A program made the translations under genes and the position numbers. A stretch of 64,000 bases of DNA from a phage: assembly GCA_017676145.1 (NCBI GenBank), contig GCA_017676145.1_3628.1. One strand, written 5' to 3'. Positions 41,630 through 48,386 of this stretch are shown one piece after another. Numbering within the stretch: the stretch's first letter is position 1; every line of letters begins with the position of its first letter. The notes beneath the pieces were generated by a model. The model ran no database searches. It worked only from the letters and a program-made list of their open reading frames with translations, and was not told the origin of the DNA.

Positions 41630-41728
41630 GGTGCTAGGTGATGGAATCGAACCACCTATGTATTCAACGACTACCTCGTCTATTTTCAGGATTAAAAATC
41701 CTCGCCCTTGCCAAAGGGCTTACCTAGC
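41630..41728 (-). tRNA. atypical tRNA-like gene, anticodon UUU (Lys) candidate, with about 30 nt variable region
   Basis: perfect 7 bp acceptor GCTAGGT/ACCTAGC, D-arm GCCC-TTTGGCAA-GGGC, anticodon arm GAGGA-TTTTTAA-TCCTG, T-arm GGTGG-TTCGATT-CCATC; extra hairpin GACGA-GGTAG-TCGTT in variable region. Confidence 0.45.
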
Positions 41729-42031: not shown

Positions 42032-42119
42032 TGGTGGTGAGTGATGGAGTCGAACCACCCGAATCGCAATGATAACAGATTTACAGTCTGCCCCGCTACC
42101 CCTACGGAATTAACTCACC
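42032..42119 (-). tRNA. tRNA-Tyr (anticodon GUA), long variable arm
   Basis: acceptor GGTGAGT/ACTCACC, anticodon arm GCAGA-CTGTAAA-TCTGT, T-loop TTCGACT, CCA encoded. Confidence 0.65.
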
Positions 42120-42420: not shown

Positions 42421-42759
42421 TTAACTATTGCCAACAGGCTGTATCTCTGTGGTAAATGGCATAAAAGGTGCTGGTTTTTCAGCCTCTTCTACTACCACCT
42501 CTTCCTCTTCACCAAACATCTCATCATATTCTTCCTGCATTCGGTCTGCCTTATCAAGGACATACTCTGCAATGCTTTGACGAATATTTTGCTTGGTTTT
42601 CGGATCCAACATCAGCTCTCTTAAAACTTTGTGAGCTTCTGGAACCATCGCTATAAAAGATTCCTTCATATCAAGAATGTTCTTCTCTAGCTGAATGGCG
42701 TTGGACTCCTCTTTCAGAGGTCTGCCTCTACGGCGACGCTTTTTAGTTGTATCCGCCAT
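42421..42759 (-). CDS. small DNA-binding protein with AT-hook-like motif
   Basis: start at internal ATG 42759 with GGAGGAAAC Shine-Dalgarno; KKRRRRGRPLKE basic motif; acidic C-terminus. Confidence 0.4.
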   Translation of the reverse strand: MADTTKKRRRRGRPLKEESNAIQLEKNILDMKESFIAMVPEAHKVLRELMLDPKTKQNIRQSIAEYVLDKADRMQEEYDEMFGEEEEVVVEEAEKPAPFMPFTTEIQPVGNS

Positions 42760-42770
42760 GTTTCCTCCAT

Positions 42771-42800
42771 TATCACGTGATAGGTGGATTTTATCACGGC
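42771..42800. promoter_or_regulatory. operator-like palindrome TATCACGTGATA plus TATCACGGC half-site
   Basis: 12 bp perfect palindrome at 42771-42782 and a repeat of the TATCAC half-site at 42792-42800, just upstream of 42421-42759. Confidence 0.25.
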
Positions 42801-43104
42801 AAATACTGATTGTCAAGTTCGCCGCAGGGTGGTATTCCCTGCGACTTGCCCAGCGTCCTGGACCAGAAAGACCCAACAAGTGGGTTACCAGAGACCCATT
42901 ACCGCGCTTTGGCTCGACCTTATTACAGGTTGGCTGGGGTCACATCGTCATGTGCTGGCTGCCCCTACCATTTTAAGTGTGGTGCACTATCAAGCCCTCT
43001 AAGGGGAACTCAGCATTCTCCGAACCCTGTTTCAAAGCATCCGGAGATAAAGCCATCAAACTCATCTTTAAATTGGATATTCATCATGATACACGAAAAC
43101 AACC

Positions 43105-43622: not shown

Positions 43623-44201
43623 TCAACGTTCGTAGTAAATCTTATTCAACATTACCTCATCGTTTGCAGAAAGGATATCAAGATATGCATCACCAAATCT
43701 GCCTGCAACAACCTCTGCATGATACATCACTTCGTCAACATCGTCAAGAGTGATAACCGGATGACCATATCTTTCTGAATATTGCCTCAGGGTGCGATGT
43801 AACGAGTCGTCATCATATGCAGACTTTTTAATATCACAAACACGACGAATGGCCTTGATGTCGAAAAAACCTGTGCGATACCACCCAAGAAAAAAGTTCC
43901 GTGTGGTGTCAACATCTACATCAATACCATCAAGAACTTTATCTACAAGATAGCTGTCATCCTTTGGACCAGCGTCCTTAGTGCGAATGTAGTTGCCATC
44001 TTTTCCAGGCGATAGCTCCTTCTCATCACCAACCTGCATGCCATCATTTGGCGGTGTTAGCCACTTATCCGGATGCTTACGATCACGAGCGTTAGAATGA
44101 TTACGCTGGAAACCTGGCTTCCACTTGAAAGTTTTCTCCATCTGTTCTTCATTCTGATAACGTTTTGCAATCTTTTCGCGGTCATCTTTGCGTGAACTCA
44201 T
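43623..44201 (-). CDS. hypothetical protein
   Basis: 192 aa ORF with GAGGAGG Shine-Dalgarno upstream of ATG at 44201. Confidence 0.4.
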   Translation of the reverse strand: MSSRKDDREKIAKRYQNEEQMEKTFKWKPGFQRNHSNARDRKHPDKWLTPPNDGMQVGDEKELSPGKDGNYIRTKDAGPKDDSYLVDKVLDGIDVDVDTTRNFFLGWYRTGFFDIKAIRRVCDIKKSAYDDDSLHRTLRQYSERYGHPVITLDDVDEVMYHAEVVAGRFGDAYLDILSANDEVMLNKIYYER

Positions 44202-44706
44202 AACTGCCTCCTCTTCAAGTTATAGAAAAACTCACTGTATCGCTTTGTAACGAGCTTTTCTATCAAACTGGTGCGATTGCCTTACTTGGTATAGTTTACG
44301 CAGCTGTGTGGCGATTTAGGGGCCTTCCTGTCCGTTTCCACACATAAACTTTAACTAAACTCGCGCGGGAGGCTCTCAACCGACTCCTTACGGCGCTGGC
44401 AAGCTTTCGTCGGTGGTCCACATTAGTGCTCGGCCTTTGGCCTGCGCTATCGCTTCGCTCCCACACATGTTAACAGTCCTGCATGTATGCACTCCTGTCA
44501 TTGTGTGCACTATGGAGGCCCGGCATCTCGCCCCTCGTAGGCGAGTGCCAATGAAGGGCCGACACTACCAATAGTAAGTAATAAATTTAAAACATGGTAC
44601 TTAGGATCTAGTATATTCTACATAAGTTAAGTATATGTACTTTAGTACCATAAGTACTAGATCTTTTATTTTTTATTATTTAGTTATTTTAGTTATATTC
44701 TTTATG

Positions 44707-44787
44707 TGTCCGTATTGCGGACAGTTAGTGTCCGTATTACGGGCAGATGTGTCCGCGTGACGGACAGTAGTGTCCGTATCACGGACA
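44707..44787. repeat. iteron array: four 17 bp dyad-symmetric repeats at 21-22 bp spacing (origin or operator candidate)
   Basis: TGTCCGTATTGCGGACA (44707-44723), TGTCCGTATTACGGGCA (44729-44745), TGTCCGCGTGACGGACA (44750-44766), TGTCCGTATCACGGACA (44771-44787); adjacent AT-rich tract 44600-44700. Confidence 0.6.
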
Positions 44788-44862
44788 GTTACTACCCTCT
44801 GCTCTTGGATGGACATAAAACATACGAATCCTTATAGTGCAGATATTTAAGTTTTCACTGGT

Positions 44863-45213
44863 CTAACCAGTTGTTGACATTCGAATAACCTCTTCTGGTG
44901 GCAAAACTTTGGAAAATGTGCATCTTTTACCTCTCCCTTGTGTGGATATTTCAACCACTCCTGCACATTCTAAAGTTTTAACGCACGCTGCTGCTTTTGT
45001 TTTCTTTATCCCAACATCTGCTGCAATTTTCCTTGTGCTGGGTGTGAAGCGTGAATTTCCTCCAAGCTTATACCAGTTGTGCAGGTAGCAGTATACGATC
45101 TTGTCATACAAGTCAAGAACAACAACCTCCCCGGTTGTGTCATTCAAAACTTTTGACATAGACAGTATTTCAAGGGGGACTTTAAGATATAGCAGCTTAT
45201 CCCCATCTTTCAT
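44863..45213 (-). CDS. helix-turn-helix DNA-binding protein (candidate iteron-binding or replication initiator)
   Basis: 116 aa; PSTRKIAADVGIKKTKAAACVKTLECAGVVE has helix-turn-helix character; gene ends about 75 bp from the iteron array. Confidence 0.4.
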   Translation of the reverse strand: MKDGDKLLYLKVPLEILSMSKVLNDTTGEVVVLDLYDKIVYCYLHNWYKLGGNSRFTPSTRKIAADVGIKKTKAAACVKTLECAGVVEISTQGRGKRCTFSKVLPPEEVIRMSTTG

Positions 45214-45260
45214 ATCTCCTGATTCTCCTTGTGTGGCAATTTTCTTTAAAATAGCAGGGA

Positions 45261-45815
45261 TTACTCCCCGCTGTCAATAGCAAGACTCATTGCAATACGG
45301 TATGCCTCTTCTAATGGTAAGAGTCTCCCCCACACATCCCAACCGACATCAAACTGCCTGCCAAACAACTGTTGCGTGGTTCCGTGAGCATGACCGAACA
45401 GTTGGACTGATCCGTGATGCTTTCTGTTCCACGTTGCAAACTGGTAATGACTCATACAGATCAAATTCTTGTTGTGGCGAAACTCGTAATAATCTACAAC
45501 CTCATGATAGAACTCTTTCATAATTCTGACAGTCGTCCTTGTGTCATGGTTGCCACGAACAAGAATAATATGTCCGTTCAACATATTTAGAATATCTGGA
45601 AGTAAGTTGTTGATATTCTTATCATTAGTGCACGCAATATCCCCCAAGTGGAACACAGTGTCTGCAGGTGACACAACAGAGTTCCACTCGGTGATGATTC
45701 CAGCATTCATACTGTCAAGATTGTGATCATACTGAGATCTGTGTTTTTGACACGAGTCAAACTCCATGACCCGCTGGTGGAGAAAGTGTGTGTCACTTGT
45801 TACAAAGTATTTCAT
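45261..45815 (-). CDS. calcineurin-like metallophosphoesterase (candidate RNA 3' end-healing phosphatase)
   Basis: start at internal ATG 45815 with GAGGAA Shine-Dalgarno; motifs SDTHF, LGDIACTND, RGNHD, GHAH. Confidence 0.6.
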   Translation of the reverse strand: MKYFVTSDTHFLHQRVMEFDSCQKHRSQYDHNLDSMNAGIITEWNSVVSPADTVFHLGDIACTNDKNINNLLPDILNMLNGHIILVRGNHDTRTTVRIMKEFYHEVVDYYEFRHNKNLICMSHYQFATWNRKHHGSVQLFGHAHGTTQQLFGRQFDVGWDVWGRLLPLEEAYRIAMSLAIDSGE

Positions 45816-46351: not shown

Positions 46352-47269
46352 ATGATGAAGTATTTTAATGCAGACGACCTAGTTGACAAAGGTCTTGTAA
46401 CCAGCAGATATTACCCAGATCTTGGATTAAAGATCTATAAATATGCCAGAAAAGTATTTTACAACAATTTATGGCATTTGTCTCCTCGTTTGCTGGAGTG
46501 CCGGGGAATTGTTGTCGGTAATGAAGGAAATGTTGTGGCATGGCCCTTCACAAAAGTGTTTAACTTGGGAGAAAACTCCACCAACCTGCCTGACAATAAG
46601 CTTGTGACGGCGGTAGAGAAAAAGAACGGATTCCTTGGTGTGGTATCATCTCATAAAGGTGAACTATTGTTCTCAACAACCGGATCTCTTGATTCTCCAT
46701 ATTGTAACCTCGCAAAGGAAACCATCCAGGAGCAATGTGGTAATTTAGATCTTATCAAGAAGGTTATGGGCAAAGAAAACATGACATTCATGTTTGAAAT
46801 TTGTCACCCTTCAGATCCGCATATTGTTCAGGAAGATCATGGCGCATATTTGATAGGCTGCAGATATAATGATTCTGGAATAATGCTACCAGAAGCAGCT
46901 TTAGATGGGATTGCCAAACACCTTGGTGCAAAACGTCCTCACACTGTGCGTGAAATTCCGTTCAGCTATGCAAAAGAATTAGCTGCAGAAACAAGAGGTG
47001 AAGGGTATATGATTCGTAAGCCTTACTACCCTTATGACCTGCAGCTGAAGATCAAGTCTCCATACTATCTGGCACGGAAGGCCGTAATGAGGGGTAAGGC
47101 TTGGAAGATTTGGGATGATGATATCTTTAAACGTATTGACGAAGAGTTTTACGGCATGGTAAACTTCATTCGTAGCAATTACACAGAGGATGTGTGGAAC
47201 TGCCTCCTGGAGCAGGAACGCCGTGAGATACTTGATTGCTATTTCCACAACGAGGACTATATGCAATGA
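46352..47269 (+). CDS. RNA ligase (Rnl2-like nucleotidyltransferase)
   Basis: motif I-like EKKNG, motif IV-like EGYMIRKP, motif V-like KIKSPYY; start chosen at ATG 46352 after GAGGAA. Confidence 0.55.
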   Translation: MMKYFNADDLVDKGLVTSRYYPDLGLKIYKYARKVFYNNLWHLSPRLLECRGIVVGNEGNVVAWPFTKVFNLGENSTNLPDNKLVTAVEKKNGFLGVVSSHKGELLFSTTGSLDSPYCNLAKETIQEQCGNLDLIKKVMGKENMTFMFEICHPSDPHIVQEDHGAYLIGCRYNDSGIMLPEAALDGIAKHLGAKRPHTVREIPFSYAKELAAETRGEGYMIRKPYYPYDLQLKIKSPYYLARKAVMRGKAWKIWDDDIFKRIDEEFYGMVNFIRSNYTEDVWNCLLEQERREILDCYFHNEDYMQ

Positions 47270-47616
47270 AGAAGTTGATTGTGTGGCTTGATGATTTTAG
47301 AGATCCGTCAGATTATGGACTCCCAGACGCTCTGTGGCTAAAGAATTCTTCTGAGTTTATGGATTTCATCGATGACAAGGGAAAGCTATATAGACGCGTT
47401 TCTGAGTGGCATTTTGACAGCGACTTGGGAGAAATTTTTGAAGGATACGATTGCTTCTGCATACTAGAGGAAAAATTTGTATTTGGTAAGCCTCCTGTAG
47501 TTGACAACGTGAAGATTTTCGTGCATACTTCTAACCCATCAGCGGCTCGTAAATTCATGCTTGCTGCTGACTCGTTTAAAAAGTTTGGAATAGAGATTAA
47601 ACAAAACATCTACTGA
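47266..47616 (+). CDS. hypothetical protein, adjacent partner of SIR2 gene
   Basis: 116 aa from ATG overlapping upstream stop (ATGA); begins MKKLIVWLDDFRDPSD; single HTS motif; no family recognised. Confidence 0.4.
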   Translation: MKKLIVWLDDFRDPSDYGLPDALWLKNSSEFMDFIDDKGKLYRRVSEWHFDSDLGEIFEGYDCFCILEEKFVFGKPPVVDNVKIFVHTSNPSAARKFMLAADSFKKFGIEIKQNIY

Positions 47617-47624
47617 GGACACTT

Positions 47625-48386
47625 ATGCGACGACTGATCATTATCTCCGGCGCTGGTTTGAGCGCTGAATCTGGTATCCCAACTTTCCGATCTGGTTGCA
47701 CTGCAATGTGGGAGAATTTCAGCATCGATGAGGTGTGTAACATCCACACCTTTGCCAAGAACTACTATAAGGTGCATGACTTTTACAATGCACGGCGTGT
47801 AGCTCTGGGCAGTGTTGATCCTAACATTGCACATCTCCGGATCGCTGAGTGGTATTCCCGCTGGTCTGGTCGTGTGATCAACCTGACCACCAATGTAGAT
47901 GATTTGCTGGAGCGTGCTGGTGTAAAACATGAAGATATTTTACATGTCCACGGATATTTGCCAGAAATAGTCTATGAGGATGATGAAGGGAGTGACGTCA
48001 TTAAAGACATTGGATACTCTGAGGTAGATGCAAGCGAGTATACTTGGGTCAAGCCTAATGTGGTGTTCTTCGGAGAAGTAGCTCCGAAGTATACAGACAT
48101 GTATGACCTGTTGACTTCTCTTACGAGTAATGATATGGTTATCCTTGTAGGGTGTTCCAACACAGTTATCAATTTTAACTGGGAGCTATTCCCTGCCTGC
48201 AATAAGGGAACCAAACTGCTGATCGTTAACAAATACGACTCACAGCAGCTAGGGGAGAATGGTATTTCACGTAGTGATATTTACCAATATGAGGATCGCG
48301 GCATCCCAGTTTGGTTTAACGGGGCGGTTGATGCTTTCTCTGATAAAACATTCATTGAGACCGTAGAAAACTTTATGGAACTTTAA
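47625..48386 (+). CDS. SIR2-family NAD-dependent protein (sirtuin-like)
   Basis: GAGLSAESGIPTFRSG Rossmann motif and HVHG catalytic His motif; 253 aa. Confidence 0.7.
   Translation: MRRLIIISGAGLSAESGIPTFRSGCTAMWENFSIDEVCNIHTFAKNYYKVHDFYNARRVALGSVDPNIAHLRIAEWYSRWSGRVINLTTNVDDLLERAGVKHEDILHVHGYLPEIVYEDDEGSDVIKDIGYSEVDASEYTWVKPNVVFFGEVAPKYTDMYDLLTSLTSNDMVILVGCSNTVINFNWELFPACNKGTKLLIVNKYDSQQLGENGISRSDIYQYEDRGIPVWFNGAVDAFSDKTFIETVENFMEL

Follow-up and report, generated by a model that had tools for sequence, protein, structure and literature searches.

We describe a module of three adjoining elements that probably forms an iteron-type replication origin of the phage that carries it. It lies in a 64,000-nucleotide stretch of DNA, hereafter the window (GenBank assembly GCA_017676145.1, contig GCA_017676145.1_3628.1), of a Vequintavirus, an rV5/FV3-like Escherichia coli myovirus, and the region is 96–97% identical to many Vequintavirus genomes. 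The module consists of four 17-bp dyad repeats, or iterons (44707-44787), an AT-rich tract that directly abuts them (about 44565-44706) and, on the minus strand, the gene for a stand-alone 116-amino acid winged-helix protein (44863-45213), the proposed origin-binding protein, with its stop codon 75 bp from the last dyad. The initial annotation had pointed to an origin-like module here, made up of four 17-bp dyads at 21–22-bp spacing, an AT-rich stretch (44600-44700) with GATC, CTAG and GTAC palindromes and a helix-turn-helix open reading frame about 75 bp from the repeats. All these elements were recovered at these positions, the protein being of the winged helix-turn-helix kind, and the origin reading gains computational support from the confinement of the repeats to a single locus, the exceptionally low duplex stability of the tract, the kinship of the protein to RepA of the Vibrio satellite PLE and the recurrence of the module in other phage lineages.

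The repeats (no strand) follow the pattern TGTCCG-N5-CGGACA and read TGTCCGTATTGCGGACA (dyad 1, 44707-44723), TGTCCGTATTACGGGCA (dyad 2, 44729-44745), TGTCCGCGTGACGGACA (dyad 3, 44750-44766) and TGTCCGTATCACGGACA (dyad 4, 44771-44787), with start-to-start distances of 22, 21 and 21 bp, equivalent to two helical turns. At up to two mismatches, these four are the only such sites in the 64-kb window. Their raw count alone is unremarkable, at least four matches anywhere being found in 3 of 100 shuffles; the clustering is remarkable, at least four CCG-N5-CGG sites within 100 bp occurring in none of 300 shuffles of local composition. The complete FV3 genome (136,947 bp), in which about 64.3–64.5 kb corresponds to about 44.6–44.8 kb of the window, was used as the reference for genome-wide motif and stability scans; at the same tolerance it contains the four clustered sites and one isolated one-mismatch site inside a gene. 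The confinement of the dyad to one cluster argues for a single-locus cis element and not for the operator set of a regulon, and a unique cluster of repeated putative initiator-binding sites is what characterizes iteron origins. Published work describes RepA_N iterons as direct repeats, each semi-palindromic, in which inverted sub-repeats point towards a central tract (PMC7145576), and the present repeats fit this description, being direct repeats (21–22 bp) with 6-bp inverted arms around a 5-bp centre.

Conservation was assessed by aligning six relatives and by counting 45 dyad sites from 12 relatives. Ten of the twelve arm positions never change, and the sole arm variant, TGTCCG to TGCCCG, occurs at positions 3 and 15, which the symmetry relates to each other. 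Between the arms, the five bases of the centre are mostly A or T and freely variable, except for the middle T. Copy number ranges from two (YN3) through three (A135, EdH4, FFH2 and, by length class, others) and four (most records) to six (O157 typing phage 14), all of them viable isolates, and the steps are always 21–22 bp whatever the number of copies. The arms are the same even beside orthologues of the 116-residue protein that are 86–89% and 71% identical, so that no covariation of protein and site could be obtained from these orthologues within the genus. Judged by its sequence, this conservation pattern bears the mark of a site that a symmetric dimer recognises, within an array of variable dosage. 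A small protein encoded across the repeats was also considered, a 46-residue minus-strand open reading frame (44676-44816) that is annotated in some records; it was rejected, as its amino-terminal part coincides with the stretch that varies most and its sequence lacks conservation.

Phage repressor operators, too, typically consist of tandem 17-bp dyads spaced by two turns, the textbook example being the lambda arrays OR1-3 and OL1-3, which are bound cooperatively by dimers. A multi-operator site had been offered as the alternative in the initial annotation; the protein would then be a repressor or activator, and the dyads tandem operators of a transcriptional control site. The array itself argues against this. 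In lambda, the operators are spread over more than one locus and overlap promoters; the present array is confined to one locus, varies in copy number and adjoins an extreme AT tract, and no further operator sites are found elsewhere in the genome. No predicted promoter overlaps 44707-44787 in consensus scans, which a non-canonical promoter could escape, and the rV5 authors predicted none at the dyads. The dyads are located 3' of the protein's own gene, and the existence of viable isolates with two to six copies is hard to reconcile with a precise promoter geometry.

The AT-rich tract (about 44565-44706, no strand) is the proposed DNA-unwinding element, with a GC content of 20% at 44600-44699. 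It contains the inverted repeats GATCTAGTA...TACTAGATC, identified partly by direct reading, and is punctuated by short palindromes: two GATC (44605 and 44660), two CTAG (44608 and 44657) and four GTAC sites (44597, 44637, 44645 and 44654), the genome densities being 5.1, 1.2 and 1.9 per kb, respectively. A nearest-neighbour duplex-stability profile was calculated over the whole FV3 genome with window sizes of 40, 80, 120 and 150 bp, and at all four sizes the tract is the global minimum. With 120-bp windows it scores −124.0 kcal/mol; the next tract follows at −133.6, and the genome averages −160.4 (standard deviation 6.2), so that the tract is about 5.9 standard deviations under the average and well separated from the runner-up. 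It is nearly invariant in the six relatives, including one with an 89% identical protein, and is conserved above the flanking coding sequence. Iteron origins have an adjoining AT-rich DNA-unwinding element; the abutting position and the stability minimum make the tract the candidate for this element. Within it, the plus-strand sequence GATCTTTTATTTT (44660-44672) is the only exact match, on either strand of the 137-kb FV3 genome, to GATCTnTTnTTTT, the consensus of the E. coli oriC 13-mers. As the match was noticed post hoc, this is suggestive only.

The gene of the 116-residue protein has an AGGAG sequence 4 nt before its ATG, as seen by direct reading, and public records label its product variously as "transcriptional regulator", "DsrC like" and "replication initiation protein". 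The protein is of the RepA_N-like/DUF6945/HTH_36 type. Against Pfam DUF6945 (PF22182) it scores 27.1 bits for a gathering cutoff of 28, and against HTH_36 it remains just below threshold; homologues reach DUF6945 scores of 28.7 (BIS47), 47.7 (P0019) and 31.9 bits (P0016). No match to Pfam RepA_N (PF06970) was obtained at E ≤ 1, NCBIfam gave no informative match, and a literature search found nothing on DUF6945. A sequence search of the PDB returned RepA_N chains only at an E-value of about 1.2. The PHROG to which the protein belongs is labelled "replication initiation protein", and it matches the amino-terminal parts of larger phage initiators weakly. The family is very narrow, with one cluster at 50% identity among 1.84 billion representatives and only weak matches beyond it; a word-based search with this protein alone found close relatives only, and a scan of viral contigs added a single locus. 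The Vequintavirus genome contains a single member of the family.

An AlphaFold model calculated from a 21-sequence alignment reached a mean predicted local distance difference test (pLDDT) score of 81.6, an earlier 5-sequence alignment having been too poor (pLDDT 47). It consists of a beta-hairpin, a three-helix winged helix and a short carboxy-terminal helix. In both sequence and fold, the protein comes closest to the DNA-binding domain of RepA from the Vibrio cholerae satellite PLE (PDB 4RO3, the N-terminal domain of RepA), with about 27% identity over the domain. Among the matches listed, the other full-length structures are exclusively RepA_N plasmid initiator domains (4PQL, 5KBJ, 4PT7 and 4PTA), aligned by Foldseek over 112–114 columns, the N-terminal beta-hairpin included, with E-values from 1e-4 to 4e-2; the remaining listed matches cover a generic winged-helix core of 70–85 residues. 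The model thus predicts for this protein the amino-terminal winged-helix domain with the RepA_N-type family fold. Many of the matches to the 70–85-residue core are transcription factors, and several public records name the protein a transcriptional regulator, both of which would suit a protein acting on operators; its closest characterised relative is an initiator and not a repressor.

The closest validated relative of the module is the RepA/origin system of PLE. PLE RepA binds semi-palindromic iterons in a non-coding region, as established by electrophoretic mobility shift assay, and both the iterons and repA are needed for PLE replication; its assignment to the RepA_N family was made by structure and not by BLAST (Barth et al. 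2019/2020, PMC7145576). As in the window, its sites are semi-palindromic direct repeats (three iterons of about 30 bp) outside coding sequence and the host is Gram-negative; PLE lacks a helicase and primase of its own and uses the replication machinery of a lytic phage, the SF1B-type helicase of the helper phage being required (PMC7145576). The differences are that PLE is a satellite, whereas the module is in the 137-kb genome of the virulent phage itself, and that the iterons are shorter here (17-bp dyads with a 21–22-bp period) and usually four. Besides the modest identity of the domains, PLE RepA has a separate C-terminal domain (PMC7145576), whereas the window protein is a DNA-binding domain only. 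The RepA_N initiators of Gram-positive plasmids (RepA of pSK41 and pTZ2162; 4PQL, 4PT7, 4PTA and 5KBJ) share the full-length fold, and their dimeric winged-helix domains also bind semi-palindromic iterons in direct repeat. They are set apart by a host-specific C-terminal domain, by another host and replicon type and by the PF06970 match that is absent here; the origins of these plasmids are inside the rep gene.

The initial annotation had likened the module to lambda ori, in which four dyad iterons at about two-turn spacing are bound by dimers of the winged-helix N-terminal domain of O, next to an AT-rich unwinding region, and firing is transcription-dependent. The likeness holds for the layout, four dyads at two-turn spacing followed by an AT-rich region, and does not extend to homology: the domain is RepA_N-like/DUF6945, and the Pfam search gave no match of the 116-residue protein to Phage_rep_O. 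Moreover, lambda ori is inside the O gene, whereas the repeats are 75 bp outside the gene here, and the C-terminal domain of O recruits P-DnaB, lambda using the host replisome. Lambda is therefore a layout analogue only.

The same association, with semi-palindromic repeats at 21–24-bp spacing, recurs in three other phage lineages. The sister genera Seunavirus (GAP31) and Mydovirus (BIS47) encode a 105-residue stand-alone homologue (hhalign probability 98.3%). Its gene adjoins those for the phosphoesterase and the RNA ligase, precisely where transcription chiefly diverges. It is accompanied by a pair of semi-palindromic repeats, spaced by 23 bp, and by a T-rich, extreme AT tract with GATC palindromes, and the equivalent tract of both phages contains GATCTTATGTTTT, an oriC-type 13-mer with one mismatch. 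In the full GAP31 genome (147,940 bp) the tract beside the homologue again has the lowest stability of all, whichever of the four window sizes is used (−123.0, against −133.6 for the second and an average of −164.2, standard deviation 6.3), and the repeat word occurs nowhere else in that genome. GAP31 has a second paralogue, GAP31_035 (98 residues; HTH_36 39.7 bits; L022 16780-17231), directly upstream of the runner-up low-stability tract; two exact 11-nt repeats 23 bp apart lie between gene and tract, reproducing the gene-repeats-tract layout of the window. GAP31 may therefore have two origin-like modules, versus one in Vequintavirus. An operator function would not explain why a genome-wide stability minimum sits at this place in two genera, nor why both GAP31 paralogues flank the two least stable tracts of their genome.

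Farther away, a distant metagenomic lineage encodes homologues of 176–193 residues (about 25–30% identical), and four 17-bp dyads TAGCCGCTTAGCGGCCA with the core CCG-N5-CGG of the window dyads are found only in the large non-coding region beside the operon of the homologue. This cluster was obtained in none of 2000 shuffles; two of its dyads are 21 bp apart, and a local stability minimum lies within about 100 bp. In Rheinheimera phage Barba19A, five AGACA-N4-TGTCT dyads are directly upstream of the homologue, three of them 23–24 bp apart. Non-coding DNA shows no significant similarity between these lineages and genera, the likeness of the AT tracts being of low complexity and a hint only. At the level of sequence comparison, the trait that recurs is the association of the protein family with a repeat geometry and an unwinding-prone tract, and not the DNA sequence itself.

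In GAP31, BIS47 and Barba the repeats stand immediately upstream of the start codon of the homologue, the classic position for autoregulation, which favours operators, as does a conserved sigma-70-like match adjoining the array in the window. This match, TGGACA-17-TATAGT (44810-44838, plus strand; 10 of 12 positions in a consensus scan), points rightward, antisense to the 116-residue protein gene, and its −35 element starts 23 bp from the last dyad; in phage Aya it reads TGGACA-17-TATAAT. Operators could act on this putative promoter, or on an unrecognised one inside the AT tract. Alternatively, the array could be a roadblock between the early genes (kinase, phosphoesterase and 116-residue protein gene) and the downstream genes, tRNAs and late genes; a roadblock might be of use there, as no intrinsic terminator was found after the gene. 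The iterons of origins often serve as operators as well, as in P1 RepA, so that regulatory activity would be compatible with an origin. With the evidence given for the array, the tract and the relatives, a site that serves transcriptional control instead of replication, the main rival reading, has lost ground and appears unlikely to us.

The 116-residue protein ends about 25 residues after the wing and is a DNA-binding domain only; no homologue of the C-terminal part of the long forms was found elsewhere in the genome. This bears on a further possibility, that the protein binds the repeats without being the initiator, for instance as a truncated RepA_N-type domain serving as a competitor, a copy-control (handcuffing) or anti-satellite factor or the relic of an acquired replicon, initiation being due to other factors or taking place elsewhere. 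The domain has indeed been redeployed: in Odn of phage ICP1, the same kind of domain is fused to a nuclease that cuts the PLE origin (PMC8263062). Odn resembles the window protein in being phage-encoded with the same kind of iteron-recognising domain; it differs in destroying the origin of a satellite, whereas the window protein lacks a second domain and has its sites in its own genome. As Odn carries this domain, the domain marks an iteron binder and not necessarily an initiator. The narrowness of the family would also fit a non-initiator. Joint conservation of the stand-alone short form, its repeats and the extreme AT tract in three genera of the subfamily favours a core function over a relic, and the cognate sites belong to the phage itself and adjoin the part of its genome that melts most easily. 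We consider a binding protein that is not the initiator distinctly improbable.

Two further observations concern the wider family. Its long members (146–217 residues; P0009, P0016, P0017, P0024, P0026, P0027 and P0029-P0032; loci L013-L017) end in acidic tips, such as DEDPDAPF, NDDMVLPF and LDEIPY, often of the form ...DDxx(I/L/P)P(F/Y). They resemble the C-terminal tip of SSB, DDDIPF; by this analogy, the tips suggest partner recruitment through mimicry of the SSB tail. The short forms of the Vequintavirinae lack an acidic tip. In addition, P0013 (228 residues) has a GIY-YIG nuclease fused to a DUF6945 domain, the architecture of ICP1 Odn; this fusion is a second redeployment of the domain and, by analogy, suggests that iteron-targeting nucleases are more widespread.

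The functional steps are inferred: the 116-residue protein would bind these repeats, the tract would open and replication would begin at this site. Dimers of the winged-helix protein would occupy the dyads, one per 17-bp site, and, the dyads being two helical turns apart, would be aligned on one face of the DNA, forming a cooperative and probably bent nucleoprotein complex. This complex would help to open the adjoining AT tract of about 140 bp, the easiest site of the genome to melt, after which the phage primase-helicase, SF1B-type helicase and DNA polymerase would enter. Given the lack of an effector domain, loading would be structure-driven or transcription-assisted and not a matter of direct contact between initiator and helicase: the helicase would probably enter via the opened DNA structure, perhaps aided by transcription from the promoter upstream of the gene. 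The PLE authors speculated along similar lines for RepA (PMC7145576). Replication would proceed bidirectionally, the forks moving for the most part in the same direction as the two large divergent transcription units, whose starts are about 1.5 kb away. More tentatively, and with less confidence than in the origin itself, we suggest as a possibility that a bare RepA_N-type DNA-binding domain is the complete origin-recognition factor of a 137-kb virulent phage, firing by architecture alone, through phased dimers beside an extreme unwinding tract and perhaps with transcription across it, with no initiator-helicase contact, and that the longer members recruit partners via their acidic, SSB-tail-like ...DDxxIPF-like tip.

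Several points weigh against an origin. The main weakness is the missing effector domain, which PLE RepA and the homologues of 146–217 residues possess; the use of the same domain by Odn for a job other than initiation adds to it, as do the borderline DUF6945 score and the missing Pfam RepA_N match. AT-rich tracts also house promoters, the match to the 13-mer is post hoc, and no consensus for DnaA boxes or IHF sites was found in 44200-44900. The repeats of GAP31, BIS47 and Barba, lying in the upstream or leader region of the homologue, are possible autoregulatory operators. The genes for DNA polymerase, primase-helicase and SF1B-type helicase are about 60 kb from the module. Finally, a published skew analysis showed only changes tied to the orientation of transcription and no origin signal separable from them (PMC3606486). 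That the origin of rV5-like phages was left unlocated in that work counts on the other side, in favour of the candidate; a literature search found no later origin mapping, marker-frequency data or transcriptome for Vequintavirus.

As for the genomic setting, the minus strand holds every gene from about 41 kb to 46.4 kb. Along this strand, genes for a polynucleotide kinase-like ATPase and a phosphoesterase precede that of the 116-residue protein (45213-44863), followed by the 75-bp spacer, the four repeats (44787-44707), the AT tract (about 44706-44565), a GC-rich stretch without a long open reading frame (44560-44296) and the next gene (start codon at 44201). The tRNAs, the spanins, the large terminase and the structural genes are further downstream in the same transcription unit. 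Transcription diverges mainly about 1.5 kb to the right of the module, near 46.3 kb, so that the module is at or near the major divergence, a position that favours an origin.

Four independent assemblies end in or beside the array: the metagenomic contigs L007, L008 and L012 and the GenBank record MG065672.1 (phage A141). Failure of assembly or coverage at the repeats and the extreme AT tract is the likely cause. Such ends could also be expected of a packaging (pac) site. On this reading the phage packs by headful and the protein supplies its missing small terminase subunit; circular permutation is reported for these phages, their annotation names no small terminase, and the large terminase gene is about 4.5 kb downstream in the same transcription unit. 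The fold is that of a single RepA_N-type winged helix, however, with no small terminase subunit among the structure matches listed; the gene is grouped with early-type genes driven by sigma-70, a pac site needs no unwinding tract, and the contig ends are explained more simply by the assembly failure. We hold packaging to be highly improbable.

The spacer between repeats and stop codon (44788-44862, no strand) has a variable part (44788-44809) and a conserved part (44810-44862) in the alignment of the six relatives. Judged by sequence, it is conceivable that antisense RNA from the promoter match in the conserved part controls the binding protein. Compared with the GAP31_179 layout, the Vequintavirus gene seems inverted in place. 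Ahead of the gene, a promoter-like sequence TTGACA-18-TATTTT with an upstream TG (45248-45277, minus strand) corresponds to "P76" of the rV5 record; transcription from it, if it is a promoter, would cross the gene and continue through repeats and AT tract.

On the side of the AT tract away from the repeats is a GC-rich (about 57% GC) non-coding element of about 265 nt (44296-44560, minus strand), whose conservation exceeds that of the genes around it. An 18-nt indel is present in rV5 and A135, 1-nt indels break the frame in phage Alma, and the 56-residue "ORF78" annotated there in rV5 is probably not real. The element folds better than shuffled sequence (z −3.3), with one double-sided compensatory pair only; it is too conserved for a covariation test, and no Rfam family matches it. 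It may represent a structured RNA, with transcription coming out of the AT tract, or an element acting at the DNA level, and it may or may not belong to the module. A second stretch without open reading frames (42763-43104, minus strand; 48.5% GC overall, with a core of 54–56% GC at about 42800-43000) bears no relation to the first and shows no unusual degree of structure (z −1.1). It holds the rV5 promoter P074 and is upstream of the gene ending at 42421, for which the listed TTG start (42879) is probably too far upstream, given that the PHROG match begins at residue 41.

Some observations concern other parts of the genome. The FV3 record has 2.2 kb without annotated genes at 104328-106594, where two transcription units converge (the "non-coding" box of the rV5 paper); two of the genome's six least stable 120-bp tracts fall in this region, which may represent a terminus or a second candidate for the origin. 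In the window, ARAGORN predicts a 99-nt tRNA-like gene with a four-base "anticodon" (41630-41728, minus strand) and Rfam an additional tRNA (42035-42119, minus strand; 39 bits) that is absent from the ARAGORN list; the cluster differs from the FV3 annotation and may comprise tRNAs with insertions or unusual tRNAs. In the relative L008 (1-948), a small gene matching Pfam cREC_REC (PF20274) is flanked by RNA ligase and Sir2-like genes; judging from synteny, its counterpart in the window should be open reading frame 47236-47616, directly upstream of the Sir2-like gene (47625-48386, plus strand), an unusual pairing in a virulent phage. Eighteen public records (MG0656xx, "Campylobacter phage ...", UNVERIFIED) are 90–99% identical here to E. 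coli Vequintavirus, making their host label doubtful.

The rV5-like phages (Vequintavirinae) are widely isolated and used in biocontrol and phage-therapy collections. The candidate module defines cis sites, an unwinding tract and a binding protein, and would open the early replication of these phages to experiment; it is also a candidate phage-dependent origin for engineering. The conflicting public annotations of the protein could be reconciled. If the reading is correct, RepA_N-like initiator domains extend from Gram-positive plasmids and one Vibrio satellite to large virulent coliphages, and a RepA_N-like iteron origin in such a phage, with its initiator reduced to the DNA-binding domain, would raise the mechanistic question of how replication is started by this domain alone.

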